From contig JACPPH010000002.1 of assembly GCA_016191105.1 (NCBI GenBank), positions 141,931 through 205,930 of the forward strand: DNA of 64,000 nt, read 5' to 3'. Positions 33,485 to 38,163 of the stretch are shown piece after piece. The first letter of the stretch is position 1. Each line of letters opens with the position of its first letter. Source of the DNA: Candidatus Saccharimonadota bacterium (GTDB lineage: Bacteria; Patescibacteriota; Saccharimonadia; CAILAD01; BJGX01). The notes under the pieces were generated by a model, which was not told the DNA's origin, did not search any database, and worked only from the letters and a program-made list of their open reading frames with translations. The translations under genes and the position numbers were made by a program.

Positions 33485-33815
33485 AAGCTATAAGCTCCTT
33501 TCATAGAAGTATTAGTTAATTAAATAGCGTTCTCGTTCGGTTGTGTATATGCAATGTAAAAGGACTTTTGTATCTATTGAGCAGTAATGGTACTATATTA
33601 TACGCTTTAAGTCAATAGATAATTGTTATGTTTTTGCAGGGTTTTTCGAAAGGCCCTGAGATCAAGTTTTTTATGAAAGCCTGATCTCAAAGACTTATAG
33701 TTTCGGGTGGGTGTCGTCCCGGAGACCGAAGTCTCCAGGACGAGCGACACCCAAGAGTGGACTCTGTGTGCCATCGCACCGCGAATTGAGTCCGCTAATT
33801 CGCGGTGTTTAAGCC

Positions 33816-35306
33816 CTAGGCGGGCTTGGGCGACGGACCGGGCGGGGCCGTCGTGGGTGGCACCGGCGCCGAGCTGGGCGGCGTTGCCCTGGTGGTGGGC
33901 GGGCTTCCCCCCGGGCACAGCTGCGGACAACCGGTGCTCGGGTTCGGCACTCCTGGATTGATGTCCGGGTTGGGCGGCCTGGGGGTCACCCCACCGCAGC
34001 CACTTGGACCACAGCCTTTCACCGGCGCCGGCACAGCCGGATTGCTGATAGGCTGCTGCTCGGCGATCTTGCCCTGAGGCTTGGTCGTCGGCGTCGTCAC
34101 CGTCGGCGGTGGGATGGTCGGCCCTCCCGTCGGCGGGGGCGTCACCGTCGGCGGTGGGATTGTTGACTCCGGTGGCAGGTTTGGCGGAACCGGCACCTGC
34201 GGCACGTTCGGCGTGGGCTTGAGCGACCCCCTGTTCCCGCACGAGGCGAAGAACATGATGTATGCGTTGTCCTTCCAGAACTTCACGTACAGCCGGGGCG
34301 TGCTGGTGACGTAGTCGAACTGCACCACGGTACCGTTTTGCACGACTGTGTTGTACAGGCGGGTACCCGCTGGCAACACTCCACGTTCCACCATGGAACC
34401 TCGAACGAAGTCCAGCACGATGAACAGATCCCAACCGGCCTTGGCGGCATCGCCGACCGGGCGGGGGTCCTCGTAGGGCTTGTCTTGGCTGGCCATGATG
34501 GTCCGCGCCGCATCGTCCAAGAATGCCGGGCTGCCAACACCCTTCAGGAGCAAGTCGGAGAACATGTCCTCCGGCGTGTTTCCTTGGATGCCGTTGAGCA
34601 CAACACACTTGGTCTCACACGTCACGCCCACTCCCTGTACGAGGCCACGGCGCTGGGCAATCTTCTGAACGAAGATGGCAAGGTCGACGGTGTCGGGCTG
34701 ATGCGGTGGCGCCGTGCTTGGCGGTGTGGTAGCCATAGTTGTTGGCGCAGCTGTGCCTTGCGGTTGTGTCCCGCTCGGTACTGCCGTGGTGGTGGAAGGA
34801 GCCGTGGTGTCGCTGGGCGATGTGCTTGGCGTTGAACCACCCCCGTTGCTGGTGGTGGTAGTGACGCCGGCCAGGATTGCGACGCACTTGGTGTCTGGCG
34901 GGTCCACTCCGAGTTGCTTGAGCTTGTCGGAGCTTTCCTGCACCACCTTGGCGTCGTCGCTGCCAACTCCCTGGCACAACTCGACTGTCAGCTTGAGACA
35001 TTCGGTCGGCGTGATGCCGGCCTCTTGCAGCTTCTTGTCGTCGTCGGAGTTGTTGGTGACTCCGATCCGCTTCTGGCAGTCCTCCAGACTCACCTTGGCC
35101 TTGCGCTCTTCGGTGGTTGCGGGCGGAACAGACGCGGTCGGCGCTGGCACCTGGGTGGTGTCGGAGCCTTGAGGCCCAGGTGATTGCTGGGTTGGTTGGG
35201 CACTCGCAGTGCCGCTTTTGGCTGCAATACCGGCTACACCCACCGCCCCCAAAAGGACAGTGAACACAACCGCGCAAGCAGCGAAGATCGCATGACCCCT
35301 GGTCAT
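33816..35306 (-). CDS. GC-rich block 1: secreted/membrane-anchored Thr/Pro-rich protein with Cys-containing repeat modules
   Basis: Real start is the ATG at 35306 (MTRGHAIFAACAVVFTVLLG...) preceded by AAGGAGGTG; the track's longer ORF adds upstream shadow sequence. It has a signal/TM, T/P-rich linkers, three C-x(25-30)-C modules, and a ~130-aa C-terminal domain of unknown family. GC about 68% with GC3 codons. Confidence 0.5.
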   Translation of the reverse strand: MTRGHAIFAACAVVFTVLLGAVGVAGIAAKSGTASAQPTQQSPGPQGSDTTQVPAPTASVPPATTEERKAKVSLEDCQKRIGVTNNSDDDKKLQEAGITPTECLKLTVELCQGVGSDDAKVVQESSDKLKQLGVDPPDTKCVAILAGVTTTTSNGGGSTPSTSPSDTTAPSTTTAVPSGTQPQGTAAPTTMATTPPSTAPPHQPDTVDLAIFVQKIAQRRGLVQGVGVTCETKCVVLNGIQGNTPEDMFSDLLLKGVGSPAFLDDAARTIMASQDKPYEDPRPVGDAAKAGWDLFIVLDFVRGSMVERGVLPAGTRLYNTVVQNGTVVQFDYVTSTPRLYVKFWKDNAYIMFFASCGNRGSLKPTPNVPQVPVPPNLPPESTIPPPTVTPPPTGGPTIPPPTVTTPTTKPQGKIAEQQPISNPAVPAPVKGCGPSGCGGVTPRPPNPDINPGVPNPSTGCPQLCPGGSPPTTRATPPSSAPVPPTTAPPGPSPKPA

Positions 35307-35529
35307 CCGATCACCTCCTTGTTGTTGTCTGGGTGATGTAAAGCTGCGAACTGGGTGCAGGTTTTCTCTCCTGTACTCAGCCCACATATCAGATTACACT
35401 CTTTTCGTCTATACACAAGTATAAATCTCACATTTGGGTTGAGCGGGTGGCGCCCGGCGGGAACTCGATCCGAAGATCGAAGCTCCCTGCCGGGACCACG
35501 AGGTAGGGGCCAGAACGTCATCCTGACCG

Positions 35530-36006
35530 CTACTTTGTGCCGTGCTTGAACAGCGCCGTGCAGCCGATGATGCCACCGATCACAAACGGGGCAAGAAATG
35601 CCACGATCCGTGGCCCGCCTGCGTCCGTGAGCATGGCAGCCACGACTGCACTGCAGATTGCTGCGAACACCGTTGCAAAGCAGCCCATGAGCACGCCCAC
35701 AAGGATGTGGAGGCTCTTGCCATTGGCTGGGTCTGCGCCGCCGCCAGCGGGTGGCGGCGGTGTGGCGGCATTGGCCGATGGATCGCGTGTGAGGAACCAG
35801 AAGGTCCCCCCTGCGCCACCCAGGCCAACCACCAGGGCGGTGAGGAATCCATACAGCCACGACCAATTGAGTCCTGCGACTACAAGGGTCACGAGCAGCA
35901 GGACTCCGCCAATCACCCCGCTGATGATCAGCTGGGTTTGCTGGTCGAGCCCACCTCCGGGCGATGGGGCCGGCGCGGCATAGCGCGCACGGTTGAAACC
36001 AGGCAT
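35530..36006 (-). CDS. GC-rich block 1: small 4-TM membrane protein
   Basis: About 158 aa from the ATG at 36006 (ribosome-binding site AAGAAGGTGGG). Four hydrophobic helices and a Pro/Gly/Ala-rich loop. Followed by a nested hairpin at 35459-35500. Confidence 0.45.
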   Translation of the reverse strand: MPGFNRARYAAPAPSPGGGLDQQTQLIISGVIGGVLLLVTLVVAGLNWSWLYGFLTALVVGLGGAGGTFWFLTRDPSANAATPPPPAGGGADPANGKSLHILVGVLMGCFATVFAAICSAVVAAMLTDAGGPRIVAFLAPFVIGGIIGCTALFKHGTK

Positions 36007-36029
36007 AATGCCCACCTTCTTTCGTATAT

Positions 36030-36107
36030 GTTCGGGAGCGGTACCTGGTCGTGAACTTCATTGTTCATGTGCCCTCACGGGGGCAATATACCAGGATAGC
36101 GATCCTG
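36030..36107 (-). repeat. Copy 1 of a conserved ~76-bp upstream element (promoter/5'UTR) before the 4-TM gene
   Basis: About 90% identical to 36471-36545. Shares an invariant 25-mer GGCAATATACCAGGATAGCGATCCT and an embedded 7-bp-stem hairpin. It is positioned about -15 to -90 relative to the start codon. Confidence 0.6.
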
Positions 36108-36179
36108 AAATTGTGGGTCACGAGCGGCCGCGCTCCGGGGTAAACCGGAGCACAGCCTCTCGCGTGGCGAGATCACGTG

Positions 36180-36454
36180 AGCACTTGGTCGATGATCTCG
36201 AGCATTGCGGCCTTGAACGCCTTGTTGGCATCTTCGTCCACAACGTCCGGGAAGGACTTCAAGAAGTCGGGGCCACAGAGGTCGATCATGGCCTGCACGC
36301 CTTCCTTGTTGAACTTGACCGTGCCGCCGCCGCTGATCTCCAGTTGCTCGAGAGCAACCTTCTGCAGCAGCTCCAGGGCGCGGGCCTTCATGGCCGGGTC
36401 GGCGTCGGCTGTTGCCGACTTGGACTTCTCGTAGCGGTCTTTGCTGAACGCCAT
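36180..36454 (-). CDS. GC-rich block 1: 91-aa all-helical protein of unknown function
   Basis: ATG at 36454 preceded by CAGGAGAA: MAFSKDRYEKSKSATADADPAMKARALELLQKV...LEIIDQVLT*. No WXG or other known motif. Confidence 0.45.
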
Positions 36455-36470
36455 GATGATTCTCCTGCAT

Positions 36471-36545
36471 GTTCGTGAGCGGTACCTGGTCGCGAACCGA
36501 AGTTCACGTGCCCTCACAGGGGCAATATACCAGGATAGCGATCCT
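36471..36545 (-). repeat. Copy 2 of the conserved ~76-bp upstream element before the 91-aa gene
   Basis: Aligns to 36030-36107 with a 2-nt indel in the hairpin loop. The stem shows a compensatory change (A-C mismatch in copy 1, G-C in copy 2). The loop is TTCG in the transcribed orientation. Confidence 0.6.
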
Positions 36546-36570
36546 AACATTCTGTTGAGTTGGCCGGGGA

Positions 36571-36599
36571 GCTCCGCTGCACACAGTGTGCAGCGGAGC
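36571..36599 (-). terminator. GC-rich hairpin terminator after the J-domain-like gene
   Basis: GCTCCGCTGCACA-CAG-TGTGCAGCGGAGC has a perfect 13-bp stem. A second 7-bp hairpin TTTACCG-CTC-CGGTAAA follows. Confidence 0.5.
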
Positions 36600-36626
36600 C
36601 AACCCCGTTTACCGCTCCCGGTAAAT

Positions 36627-37874
36627 CTAGTCGTCGGCGAAGACCTCCTCGATGATGTCGAAGAACGCGGCGTAGAACACGTCGCGATCGGACTCGAAGT
36701 CACCGTTGGGATACTTCTCGAGGTAGAGGTTGAGGGCGCAGAACGCCACATCGGTGATCCCTTCCTCACTGAACGACCATGGCTTGCGAAGCGGGTCGCG
36801 CGCCCACATGCCGACGGGTGTGCGCTCGATGCACTGCTTGGCTGTCGCCACACGCGCGTCGAAGTTCGGTGGCCGAACATTGGAGCGTTGCTGTCCCGAA
36901 GGACCGCCGCGCGAACCAGCACCCGAACCACTGCTACCACCCGGTCGACTCGACGAGCCGCCACTGGCGCCAGCACCCGACCCGGACTTGGGCCGTGCGC
37001 CTCTGCCAGAGGAGCCACCTTGCGAGCCGCGTGGTCGTTGCCCATTGCCGCCGTTGCGAACGAAGATCCCCTCGAGATTCTCTCGAGTGATGTCGTCGTT
37101 CCGGTCCGGATGGGCAAACGCCAAGACGCTTCGCCAGCAGAACTTGGCCCACTTCTTGCGGTCGCCGTAGGTGAACTTCTCGCCCTTCGGGTCCACCTTG
37201 CGAGCCTCGGCCTCGAAGATCACCATGATCTGGGTCATCCAACCCCGGTACTGGCGATACAAGTCCTGCTCTTCTGGTGTACGACGCGCGAAGGCGGTGA
37301 AGCGCGCCAGGTTGTCGTCGTCTCGTGGTGGCGCGCCGAACTCGGCATGCAAACCCTGGACACCCGAGAAGTTCTCGCGGATGCCAGAGATCGCGGTGTT
37401 CAGCTCTGTGATCTCTCGATCGTTCATGTCGTCTCCCTCCTGGGGGTCTTTGGTTCCCCCCGGAGGGGATGTAGGTTCTGGTTCTTCTGCAAGATCGAGC
37501 ATGAGCGTGACGATGCCACGCTTAACCATCTCGAAGCTGGCGTTGGCTTTGCGTGTCGCGTTGAGGTTGACCCCAACAATCCGACGCACGAGCCGCCACG
37601 GCTCGGGGTCTTGCTCGGTCGCTTGTACGGGTATGCCTTGTGCTTCGAGCCATGGCACCCAGTCTTCGTAGGAAAGGGTTGGCTCGGGGTCTTCGCCTTC
37701 TGGTGGTGTGTCACCTGCCCCTGAATCTTCAAGGACTTTACCAAGTGCCACCAAGAAGTCTTCTTCACCCACCTGTCCGTCATCGGCAAGCTTGTCGCCC
37801 AGTTCAACAATGAGCTTGGGCTTAAGGTCGATCGAAACTTCCAGGTCAGCACATAGCGTTTCGAGATGCGGCAT
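36627..37874 (-). CDS. GC-rich block 1: J-domain-like (HPD motif) protein with acidic N-terminus and Gly/Ser/Arg-rich linker
   Basis: 415 aa; ATG at 37874 with a GGAGGGAAG ribosome-binding site. The segment KKWAKFCWRSVLAFAHPDRNDDITRENLEGIF matches the J-domain helix II-HPD-helix III. It is followed by an NGGNGQRPRGSQGGSSGRG... linker and a C-terminal domain of unknown family. Confidence 0.5.
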   Translation of the reverse strand: MPHLETLCADLEVSIDLKPKLIVELGDKLADDGQVGEEDFLVALGKVLEDSGAGDTPPEGEDPEPTLSYEDWVPWLEAQGIPVQATEQDPEPWRLVRRIVGVNLNATRKANASFEMVKRGIVTLMLDLAEEPEPTSPPGGTKDPQEGDDMNDREITELNTAISGIRENFSGVQGLHAEFGAPPRDDDNLARFTAFARRTPEEQDLYRQYRGWMTQIMVIFEAEARKVDPKGEKFTYGDRKKWAKFCWRSVLAFAHPDRNDDITRENLEGIFVRNGGNGQRPRGSQGGSSGRGARPKSGSGAGASGGSSSRPGGSSGSGAGSRGGPSGQQRSNVRPPNFDARVATAKQCIERTPVGMWARDPLRKPWSFSEEGITDVAFCALNLYLEKYPNGDFESDRDVFYAAFFDIIEEVFADD

Positions 37875-37912
37875 TGCTTCCCTCCTCGGGTAGTGCCCCG
37901 GGAGGGGCGTCT

Positions 37913-38009
37913 TGTTTACTGTTACCTACAGGAGCCTGCGTACGGCATTCAATCTTGGGCGGCAAGATCGCTTACACGTACACAGGTGCCTGTAGGCAGT
38001 TTGTAAACT
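37913..38009. repeat. ~95-bp imperfect palindrome with reiterated CCTACAGG/CCTGTAGG/GTAGGCAG motifs at the block 1 boundary
   Basis: Left arm TGTTTACTGTTACCTACAGGAGCCTGCGTACGG and right arm CGTACACAGGTGCCTGTAGGCAGTTTGTAAACT, centred on AATCTTGGGCGGCAAGATCG. The motif recurs at 38055-38062. The GC content drops to backbone level right after it. Confidence 0.55.
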
Positions 38010-38163
38010 AAAAAGCAGGTAAAATAGCCTGTTCTATACGAACAAGCAACCCTCCTGCCTACTTATTTAGGGAGCGGATATTTCAAATTGAACGATCCAT
38101 AGCCTAAGCTATGAACTCGGAAACAATATACTACAAAACTATCGTTTTGTCAAGTATTTTCTA

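Follow-up and report, generated by a model that had tools for sequence, protein, structure and literature searches.

The RNA elements that most closely resemble the one described here are the leaders of ribosomal-protein operons (L10, L20 and S15), the antitermination sites of the rrn operons and of phage lambda (nut), the put RNAs of phage HK022, and the structures found between cistrons, i.e., repetitive extragenic palindromic (REP) sequences, bacterial interspersed mosaic elements (BIMEs) and stabilizer hairpins. HK022 put RNAs are two-stem elements, present in two copies per phage, that act in cis on RNA polymerase, and the boxA of the E. coli rrn operons reads TGCTCTTTAACAA. The gammaproteobacterial boxA consensus is GYTCTTTAANA, and T6C-type changes inactivate the E. 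coli site (PMC5725501). In this study, we analyzed two near-identical elements in a 64-kb stretch of DNA (hereafter, the window) from a Candidatus Saccharibacteria metagenome-assembled genome, whose contig is also present in the Logan assembly of run SRR12113392. The elements lie on the minus strand, in a locus rich in guanine and cytosine (GC): element A (copy 2) stands in the spacer between genes 1 and 2, and the site B element (copy 1) in the spacer between genes 2 and 3 (Table 1). We consider it reasonably probable that the two are copies of a conserved folded RNA module, carried in the transcribed spacers of an operon-like island of the order gene 1-spacer A-gene 2-spacer B-gene 3. Judging from the comparisons below, this module appears to be a structured RNA motif that has not been described before and that is narrowly distributed, in a GC-rich island of Saccharibacteria.

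Two near-identical elements precede two genes of the window

A preliminary description of this DNA had reported the two copies as a repeat in front of two different genes. This repeat is confirmed, since the minus strand of the 64 kb contains the 25-mer AGGATCGCTATCCTGGTATATTGCC exactly twice (36082-36106 and 36521-36545), with none expected by chance in 100 shuffles, even when 3 mismatches were allowed. A repeat search returned two blocks, one of 53 nucleotides (nt) at 91% identity and one of 29 nt at 93%, at a spacing of 439-441, and gapped alignment of the copies defined an ~80-nt unit running from AGGATCGC through CGAACAT. Over 83 model-aligned positions, the copies are 86% identical, and both end just 5' of a Shine-Dalgarno sequence (SD). 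The distance to the start codon, previously put at about 15 nt for both, holds for element A, whose end lies 14 nt from the ATG of gene 2, but not for the site B element, where the distance is 21 nt to the ATG of gene 3 (and 12 nt to an upstream GTG of this same four-transmembrane gene). The protein downstream of element A, taken to be 91 amino acids long, in fact has 93.

As for structure, the 7-bp hairpin had been described correctly in both copies, with the loops UUCG (element A) and AAUGAA (site B). However, the compensatory change that it was said to show within the window does not exist: its second pair is G-C in element A and an A.C mismatch at site B, and its third pair changes on one side only (U-G versus U-A). 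Two further helices had been overlooked, namely a second conserved hairpin, UGCCC-CNGUGA-GGGCA, located between the presumed -10 sequence and the 7-bp hairpin, and, enclosing both hairpins, the outer helix CCUGGU/ACCAGG.

The elements share a three-way junction that covaries across four lineages

By way of contigs carrying homologues of the island proteins, we reached further islands with both elements in three lineages: L005 (GCA_964565675.1), L006 (GCA_964637185.1) and L014 (an ENA metagenome contig). Of the remaining loci, L007 is a second contig of the L006 lineage, and L008 and L009 are partial copies of L014. Each lineage has one element between genes 1 and 2 (A-type) and one between genes 2 and 3 (B-type), and the module sits before the SD in 8/8 copies. 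The lineages must have diverged deeply, since their flanking proteins are merely 57-62% identical to those of the window (RF-1 57-59%, MurL 62%); for the island proteins, identity to those of the window is 31-53%.

Across these copies, the module forms a three-way junction in which one helix, P1 (CCUGR[UC] / [AG]YCAGG), closes two hairpins, H1 and H2. H1 has 5 bp and a loop that reads CNGUGA in 5/8 copies, and H2 has 7 bp and a loop that is frequently UNCG. The 3' tail, YNGCUCCC, is nearly invariant, and its predicted partner upstream is either the 5' arm, GG(A/C)UCG, or GGGAGCGG, the latter in A-type spacers. The strands that join the helices vary (J1 1-9 nt, J2 0-4 nt, J3 0-1 nt), and the B-type copy of L005 (L005_B) is entirely without H1. 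Folded singly, all eight full spacers gave the same architecture, comprising a long GC hairpin, the P1-H1-H2 junction and a tail paired upstream. Along the spacer, a long GC hairpin that lacks a U tract comes first, followed by the module, a third hairpin (in the other three lineages; it is missing from both window copies) and the SD. Such a GC-rich hairpin is found in every spacer of every lineage, with unrelated sequences; a scan did not report the two of the window as terminator-like, the T run being absent.

We measured covariation on the eight cores, using an unsupervised MAFFT alignment (A7) and a 24-pair structure, with two sets of controls, i.e., partners slid by 1-3 columns and 500 shuffles. 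The cells were paired in 91.3% of cases versus 29-44% in the slid controls, 12/24 pairs had changed on both sides versus 1-5, and the covariation score was 0.397 versus 0.03-0.14. The observed values were reached by 0/500 shuffles on four of the five measures and by 27/500 on the fifth (further pair types), and a model-fitted alignment reproduced these numbers. The middle pair of H1 is C-G, G-C or A-U across the copies, pair 4 of H2 is G-C, C-G or A-U, and pair 5 of P1 is G-C or A-U. The preliminary description had held that a lack of covariation would speak against the element; what we found is a covarying structure across diverged homologues. This conserved fold, with its compensatory changes across lineages, supports the reading of the module as a cis-acting structured mRNA element. 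Regarding the strand, the core holds 11 G-U cells versus 4 A.C cells, and the summed folding energy of the spacers is -706 kcal/mol in sense versus -660 kcal/mol in antisense. The excess of G-U and the better sense folding therefore favor, if modestly, an RNA read in the sense of the genes.

The module is also specific to these loci. A covariance model built from the eight copies (R1) returned those sites and one weak match, in the leader of gene 1, within 135 kb of related loci that include the whole window, and nothing in 420 kb of unrelated metagenome loci. A metagenome scan with the conserved promoter pattern of that leader, which served as a negative control, gave 80 unrelated promoter-like loci, 0 of them with the element. 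Rfam, in which a match had been thought worth looking for, holds no such family: the elements had no match in Rfam 15 even at E<=10 (window island) or E<=5 (L005, L006 and L014). As to whether the 25-mer recurs elsewhere, exact copies were absent from the collections scanned, and exact and degenerate 22-24-mer scans of a viral collection and of the GTDB representative genomes (the source genome being apparently no GTDB representative) gave chance matches in unrelated coding regions only; what does recur are diverged homologues, and these covary.

The copies probably stem from an old duplication and a recent gene conversion

The near-identity of the two copies is peculiar to the window. Between A and B, identity is 45-60% within the other genomes versus 86% in the window, and the site B copy of the window is 53-66% identical to the A copies of other lineages versus 41-45% to their B copies. 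It also carries A-type signatures (GGAUCGC, the CNGUGA loop and CAGGUACCGCUCCC). On these sequences, the simplest account would be that site B of the window was recently overwritten by A sequence via gene conversion, which would explain why the copies are nearly identical in the window alone.

A and B themselves are probably old paralogues, to judge by the genes beside them. Gene 2 aligns with the C-terminus of gene 1 (28% identity over 46 amino acids, E 0.004) in register with the elements, suggesting an ancestral duplication of the C-terminal domain together with its spacer; in this tandem duplication, the 3' part of gene 1 would have given rise to gene 2. The homology between gene 2 (36173-36454) and the C-terminal part of gene 1 (36627-36770), which ends ...AFKAAF..II.EVF, holds in every lineage.

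Outer pairings and the leader of gene 1

The 8-mer GGGAGCGG, located shortly after the stop codon of gene 1, is the exact complement of the tail CCGCUCCC, and the two would form a candidate outer helix, P0. This pairing appeared in 4/4 independent minimum-free-energy folds and in RNAalifold, with one flanking A-U/C-G covariation. Alternatively, the 5' arm may be the partner of the tail, GGA being matched by UCC and CG by CG; in this arrangement, one change is compensated (CA/UG, in L005_B).

The leader of gene 1 contains the arms of the element once more, as a mini copy that lies between the leader promoter and the leader terminator. All three features are kept in L005 and L006 (and L007); in L010 the promoter is kept, but the mini copy is not. 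This leader (38153-38010), in which a further hairpin stands between the promoter and the mini copy, could be either a small RNA of ~115 nt or a transcription attenuator before gene 1, and it has no Rfam match. In the window, L006 and L014, near-consensus sigma-70 promoters occur at the island edges only, not in the spacers. Because of this, and because the spacer hairpins have no U tracts, the simplest reading of genes 1-3 is a single transcription unit whose spacers are structured.

Between the leader terminator and gene 1, we also observed a long, rod-like hairpin (37996-37925, minus strand) with an invariant apical loop, UGCCGCCCA. Its outer stem differs completely by lineage yet remains paired (CCUACAGG/CCUGUAGG and CUAAGGCAGA/UCUGCCUUAG; it is longer in L005), and RNAalifold found compensated pairs in it. 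Just before gene 1 (37912-37876, minus strand), there is a stretch rich in C that reads CCCCUCC in the window and GCUCCC in L006 and L010. The SD region (GGAGGG or GGGAGC) can pair with it, and in such a predicted fold the SD could be sequestered in a hairpin.

What the module may do

If the two elements are a folded RNA module of this kind, it would act in cis on a polycistronic mRNA, where it would set the translation initiation, segment stability or read-through of the downstream cistron. One trans-acting factor would probably recognize the shared GGAUCG/CCGCUCCC helix, which is also displayed, in a stripped-down form, by the leader of gene 1.

Several points weigh against this reading. The eight copies come from four lineages in total, and they are not independent samples, since H2 is alike within the genomes of the window, L005 and L014. 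The asymmetry between the strands is modest, with better folding of the sense strand in 5/8 spacers, and transcription across the spacers is something that we infer. The two tail pairings, to GGGAGCGG and to the 5' arm, are mutually exclusive, and both are almost without covariation because their partners are invariant. Moreover, no RNA-binding protein was identifiable among the island proteins by Pfam, PHROGs, PDB or AlphaFold2/Foldseek, and a role of the GCUCCC tail as an anti-SD had to be dropped, given that its SD pairing was no better than that of shuffled motifs (fractions 0.09-0.75). Finally, both window copies contain a perfect extended -10, TGGTATATT (TGnTATATT), which leaves a small probability of an internal promoter at these sites, as we discuss below.

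A more elaborate arrangement, to which we give limited credence, is a three-site RNA circuit in which the leader RNA and the two junction tails compete for the single GGGAGCGG site, coordinating genes 1-3. In such a circuit, the promoter-proximal RNA of ~115 nt (~38120-38010), be it a small RNA or an attenuator, would display the GGAUCG...CCGCUCCC signature, and all three CCGCUCCC tails would vie for GGGAGCGG after gene 1, switching the folds of the spacers. The strict invariance of both 8-mers amid compensating helices would then reflect the constraint of serving many partners. If such a circuit exists, it would represent a new kind of riboregulator, specific to one island of epibiotic Saccharibacteria whose GC richness persists.

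A possible role of the elements as promoters and operators

The preliminary description had left two roles side by side, an operator or a 5' untranslated region (UTR) element. A conserved, covarying fold before the SD of two cistrons sustains the latter, i.e., a 5' UTR or leader RNA, and the DNA operator half finds no support. In its fullest form, the operator reading makes each copy a promoter with an extended -10 (TGGTATATT) and an overlapping AGGAT-N4-ATCCT operator for one dimeric repressor, genes 2 and 3 being separate, co-regulated units whose 5' UTR starts inside the element. We regard this as unlikely. The 5+5 palindrome does lie 1 nt upstream of TATATT, overlapping the TG of the extended -10, but at the 17-nt position there is no -35 hexamer (GAATGT and CAATTT are found), and a promoter scan omits both sites. 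Similarly, a strong hairpin before each copy could end the upstream transcript, and genes 2 and 3 each have their own SD; yet TATATT is absent from 6/6 related copies, in which the equivalent stretch is a junction of varying sequence (G, CCT, GATCCCATC, ATCAATT, GAAAC or AGTTATT). The palindrome, for its part, is kept in some A-type copies only, is degenerate in L006_A and is absent from the B-type copies, which read AAUGGCUCG... in its place.

The fold itself speaks further against a promoter. Covarying helices contain both the TG and the 3' half of the palindrome, and because the TG lies in such a helix (G-C to A-U), a functional structure requires that the RNA begin upstream of it; since pair 5 of P1 includes the G of this TG, a transcript whose start lies downstream of TATATT would not be compatible with the fold. 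RNA begun after the -10 folds like shuffles (z -0.74 and 0.01), whereas the whole element folds somewhat better (z -2.15 and -1.35). TATATT can moreover arise by chance, given a P1 strand ending in GGU and an A/U-rich junction of 4 nt. Most likely, then, the two elements are not a promoter or a repressor site; if they are the folded RNA module that we favor, TATATT and AGGAT-N4-ATCCT would be lineage-specific by-products of the A/U-rich junction and the 5' arm. A promoter/operator role confined to this lineage, for which nothing conserved speaks, retains a small probability. The case holds a caution, in that twin copies, each with a neat palindrome and a perfect extended -10, mimicked a promoter with its operator until diverged homologues were compared.

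Within the elements of the other lineages, the sole promoter-like match is a weak one in the B element of L014 (1634-1661, CTGACA-16-GAGAAT, 9/12), which is probably due to chance.

The resemblance of copy 2 to a Cheo/LexA-type box, GAAC-N4-GTTC, had also been pointed out. The motif is literally there, with one mismatch to CGAAC-N4-GTTCG (36493-36506), but in copy 1 the spacing is N6 and in homologues the stem gives way to unrelated sequences that are themselves compensated: their H2 stems read CAUCAGC/GUUGGUG, UAUCAGC/GCUGGUG, CACAAGC/GCUUGUG, CAUAAGCC/GGCUUAUG and ACCAGU/ACUGGU. A LexA or Cheo box is not supported.

Antitermination, riboswitch and DNA-repeat readings

We also see a small chance, one that we rate as quite low, that the elements are processive antitermination or read-through sites of the rrn or lambda nut type, or of the HK022 put type, whose nascent RNA would alter RNA polymerase and let it read through the leader terminator and the GC hairpins. 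What makes the reading attractive is the layout of three sites, which is like the repeated boxB-boxA of rrn operons: of the three sites per island, one lies between a strong promoter and a canonical intrinsic terminator, and the other two lie in spacers with strong hairpins. A C-rich, G-poor stretch follows the tail, and L005_B reads TGCTCCCTTACAACAA, to be set beside the TGCTCTTTAACAA of the E. coli rrn boxA. The tails themselves, (C/U)NGCUCCC followed by a variable A/U/C-rich stretch, nevertheless misfit GYTCTTTAANA, which is a gammaproteobacterial consensus and maybe not that of Saccharibacteria, and they have C where T6C-type changes inactivate the E. coli boxA (PMC5725501). In addition, the tail is predicted to be paired in the folds rather than single-stranded, with a predicted unpaired probability of its motif that is 0.00-0.23 in A-type copies but 0.46-0.56 in B-type copies, and no N-, Q- or LoaP-like protein was recognized among the island proteins.

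Less probable still is a small-molecule riboswitch in tandem units, one per cistron. Although a conserved three-way junction stands in leaders directly upstream of the SDs, and the alternative tail pairings could form an expression platform, a metabolite-binding RNA is unlikely, given junction strands of varying length and sequence and one copy, L005_B, without H1; nor is there an Rfam family, and the gene functions offer no hint of a ligand.

We give barely any weight to a DNA-level repeat without an RNA role, such as a miniature mobile element, an attC- or dif-like site for recombination or the neutral remnant of a recent duplication: two direct copies of high identity do lie 441 bp apart, and gene conversion has evidently acted on them, but the elements occupy orthologous positions in four deeply diverged lineages with compensated pairs and strand-biased G-U pairs, the island has no terminal inverted repeats, target duplications or recombinase genes, and neither the 64-kb window nor the public collections scanned contain a further copy. 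The remaining candidates were rejected on anatomy: a hammerhead ribozyme (J2 of 0-4 nt, J3 of 0-1 nt, no GAAA and no Rfam match, CUGAUGA being found in L006_A and L014_A only, within P1/J1), an integron attC site (no R''/R' core sites, RYYYAAC and GTTRRRY, at the element ends, and no recombinase domains in the island open reading frames), a miniature inverted-repeat transposable element and a clustered regularly interspaced short palindromic repeat (CRISPR).

The island and its genes

Genes 1-4 all lie on the minus strand and form a GC-rich island (~33720-38020) with 61.5% GC, versus 47.2% for the rest of the window, between flanking genes typical of the group (DUF5663, MurL, SecA and RF-1). 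The island site is syntenic in four lineages, between DUF5663/MurL and a DUF11-like gene plus prfA. In L006 and L014, which hold the whole island, its GC content is 61-64% versus 46-49% in the flanks; the L005 contig ends early in gene 3, with a GC profile of 57-61% versus ~48-56%. The island thus stands ~15 GC points above its genome, despite housekeeping proteins in the flanks that are just 57-62% identical across lineages.

The island proteins have relatives confined to the four lineages. An exhaustive search of 1.84 billion representative proteins yielded 4 homologues of gene 1, for which a word-indexed search had returned the query alone, low-complexity words swamping the candidates; a scan of JGI metagenomes with the gene 1 alignment gave zero relatives. 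The family of gene 2 has 4 members in 5.8 billion proteins, and an AlphaFold2 model of the protein (predicted local distance difference test 74.6) had no significant fold match by Foldseek. The four island proteins had zero matches in Pfam, PHROGs and PDB sequences, and no similarity of the island to phages or plasmids was found. At residues ~250-275 of gene 1, a stretch conserved in its homologues (P0003-P0005) has the form W..(R/K)..L..(F/L).HPD.N...(E/D)(D/E)L..(I/L)F and resembles the HPD motif of J-domains; this reading was dropped, Pfam giving no DnaJ match even at E<=5.

Gene 3 has orthologues of 164 amino acids in L006 and 175 in L014. The automatic call on the Logan contig (L001 10394-11152, 252 amino acids; window 35303-36061) is an out-of-frame open reading frame that crosses copy 1, unlike the four-transmembrane frame, which is the one kept in L006 and L014. 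In the B-type spacers outside the window, we observed an SD reading GGAGUA, a complementary UACUCC and a second GGAGUA in codons 3-4 (M-T-G-V) around the start codon, an arrangement that may give alternative hairpins around the AUG; the window, in which gene 3 begins MPGF, does not have it. Upstream of gene 4 (35440-35330, minus strand) lies a separate, A/T-richer, conserved non-coding stretch, ...AUAUGUGGGCUGA(A/G)U...GGAGAGAAAACC..., with counterparts in L006 (12790-12880) and L014 (2370-2470), which may be a promoter or leader of gene 4's own. It is preceded by a UUCG-capped GC hairpin at ~35490-35450.

Table 1. Positions of the RNA elements, genes and related features in the window (or in the related locus named).
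Feature	Position	Strand	Description
Gene 1	36627..37874	-	415 amino acids; HYX70_01155 (NCBI); without known relatives
Gene 2	36173..36454	-	93 amino acids; HYX70_01150 (NCBI); paralogue of the gene 1 C-terminal domain
Gene 3	35530..36006	-	158 amino acids from ATG (161 from GTG at 36015); 4 transmembrane segments
Gene 4	33816-35306	-	496 amino acids
Element A (copy 2)	36468..36549	-	Core three-way junction, gene 1-gene 2 spacer; covariance model R1 80.8 bits, E 2e-22
Element A, 5' arm	36544-36539	-	GGAUCG
Element A, P1	36534-36529 with 36490-36485	-	CCUGGU with ACCAGG
Element A, H1	36524-36520 with 36513-36509	-	UGCCC with GGGCA; loop CUGUGA
Element A, H2	36508-36502 with 36497-36491	-	CGUGAAC with GUUCGCG; loop UUCG
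Element A, 3' tail	36482-36475	-	CCGCUCAC
Site B element (copy 1)	36027..36110	-	Gene 2-gene 3 spacer; architecture as element A; covariance model 79.1 bits
Site B element, H2		-	CAUGAAC/GUUCACG, one A.C mismatch; loop AAUGAA
Site B element, 3' tail	36041-36034	-	CCGCUCCC
GC hairpin after gene 1	36571..36599	-	Perfect, 14 bp; no U tract; then UCCCCGGCC
GC hairpin after gene 2	36126..36157	-	13 bp, GGCUGUGCUCCGG / CCGGAGCGCGGCC; no U tract; then GCUCGUGAC; minimum-free-energy fold of spacer B
8-mer GGGAGCGG	36612..36619	-	7-14 nt after the gene 1 stop in 4/4 lineages; invariant; once per locus
Mini copy of element arms	38063..38103	-	AUGGAUCG...AUCCGCUCCC; gene 1 leader; no three-way junction; covariance model 18.1 bits, E 0.007
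Gene 1 leader promoter	38153-38125	-	Near-consensus sigma-70, TTGACA-17-TATATT
Gene 1 leader intrinsic terminator	38058-38010	-	Long hairpin (38058-38015) and UUUUU tract
GGAGUA/UACUCC feature	L005 5255-5300; L006 12190-12225; L014 1745-1780		
Island in related lineages	L006 10001-14400; L014 1-4100; L005 3560-5332		

Comparison with known systems

Literature searches did not find this motif, nor any described cis-regulatory RNAs for Saccharibacteria (candidate phyla radiation). Should our reading be right, the module would be a new, covariation-supported structured RNA motif, absent from Rfam 15. How this island is expressed can be approached solely through the leader RNA, the RNA modules and the conserved hairpins, which may guide metatranscriptomic or co-culture work.

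Among the known systems, the ribosomal-protein leaders (L10, L20 and S15), which are autoregulatory and bound by a protein, are alike in being compact, covarying, multi-helix RNAs just upstream of an SD, internal cistrons included, in which a conserved helix or loop sequence is the recognition site while the stems drift by compensation. The module differs from them in that it matches no Rfam leader, its neighbors are non-ribosomal genes without known relatives and no binding protein was identified; it also occurs twice, plus a mini version, within one operon. With the rrn and lambda nut sites, it shares one or more hairpins followed by a short pyrimidine-rich motif beginning GCUC, repeated in one transcription unit, with one copy upstream of a terminator. 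Here, however, the motif misfits GYTCTTTAANA (PMC5725501), the tail is predicted to be paired and a three-way junction replaces the single boxB. In line with HK022 put, the locus has two paralogous, multi-stem copies of ~70-80 nt in a small gene cluster with no obvious dedicated protein, yet there is no sequence or Rfam similarity between the two, the island has no phage relatives, and the module stands before SDs and not just after promoters. Lastly, REP sequences, BIMEs and intercistronic stabilizer hairpins are likewise stable, GC-rich structures between cistrons, and the module, like them, could set segment stability; whereas REP sequences are dispersed genome-wide in many copies, the module belongs to this island only, where it forms a specific three-way junction at orthologous positions.

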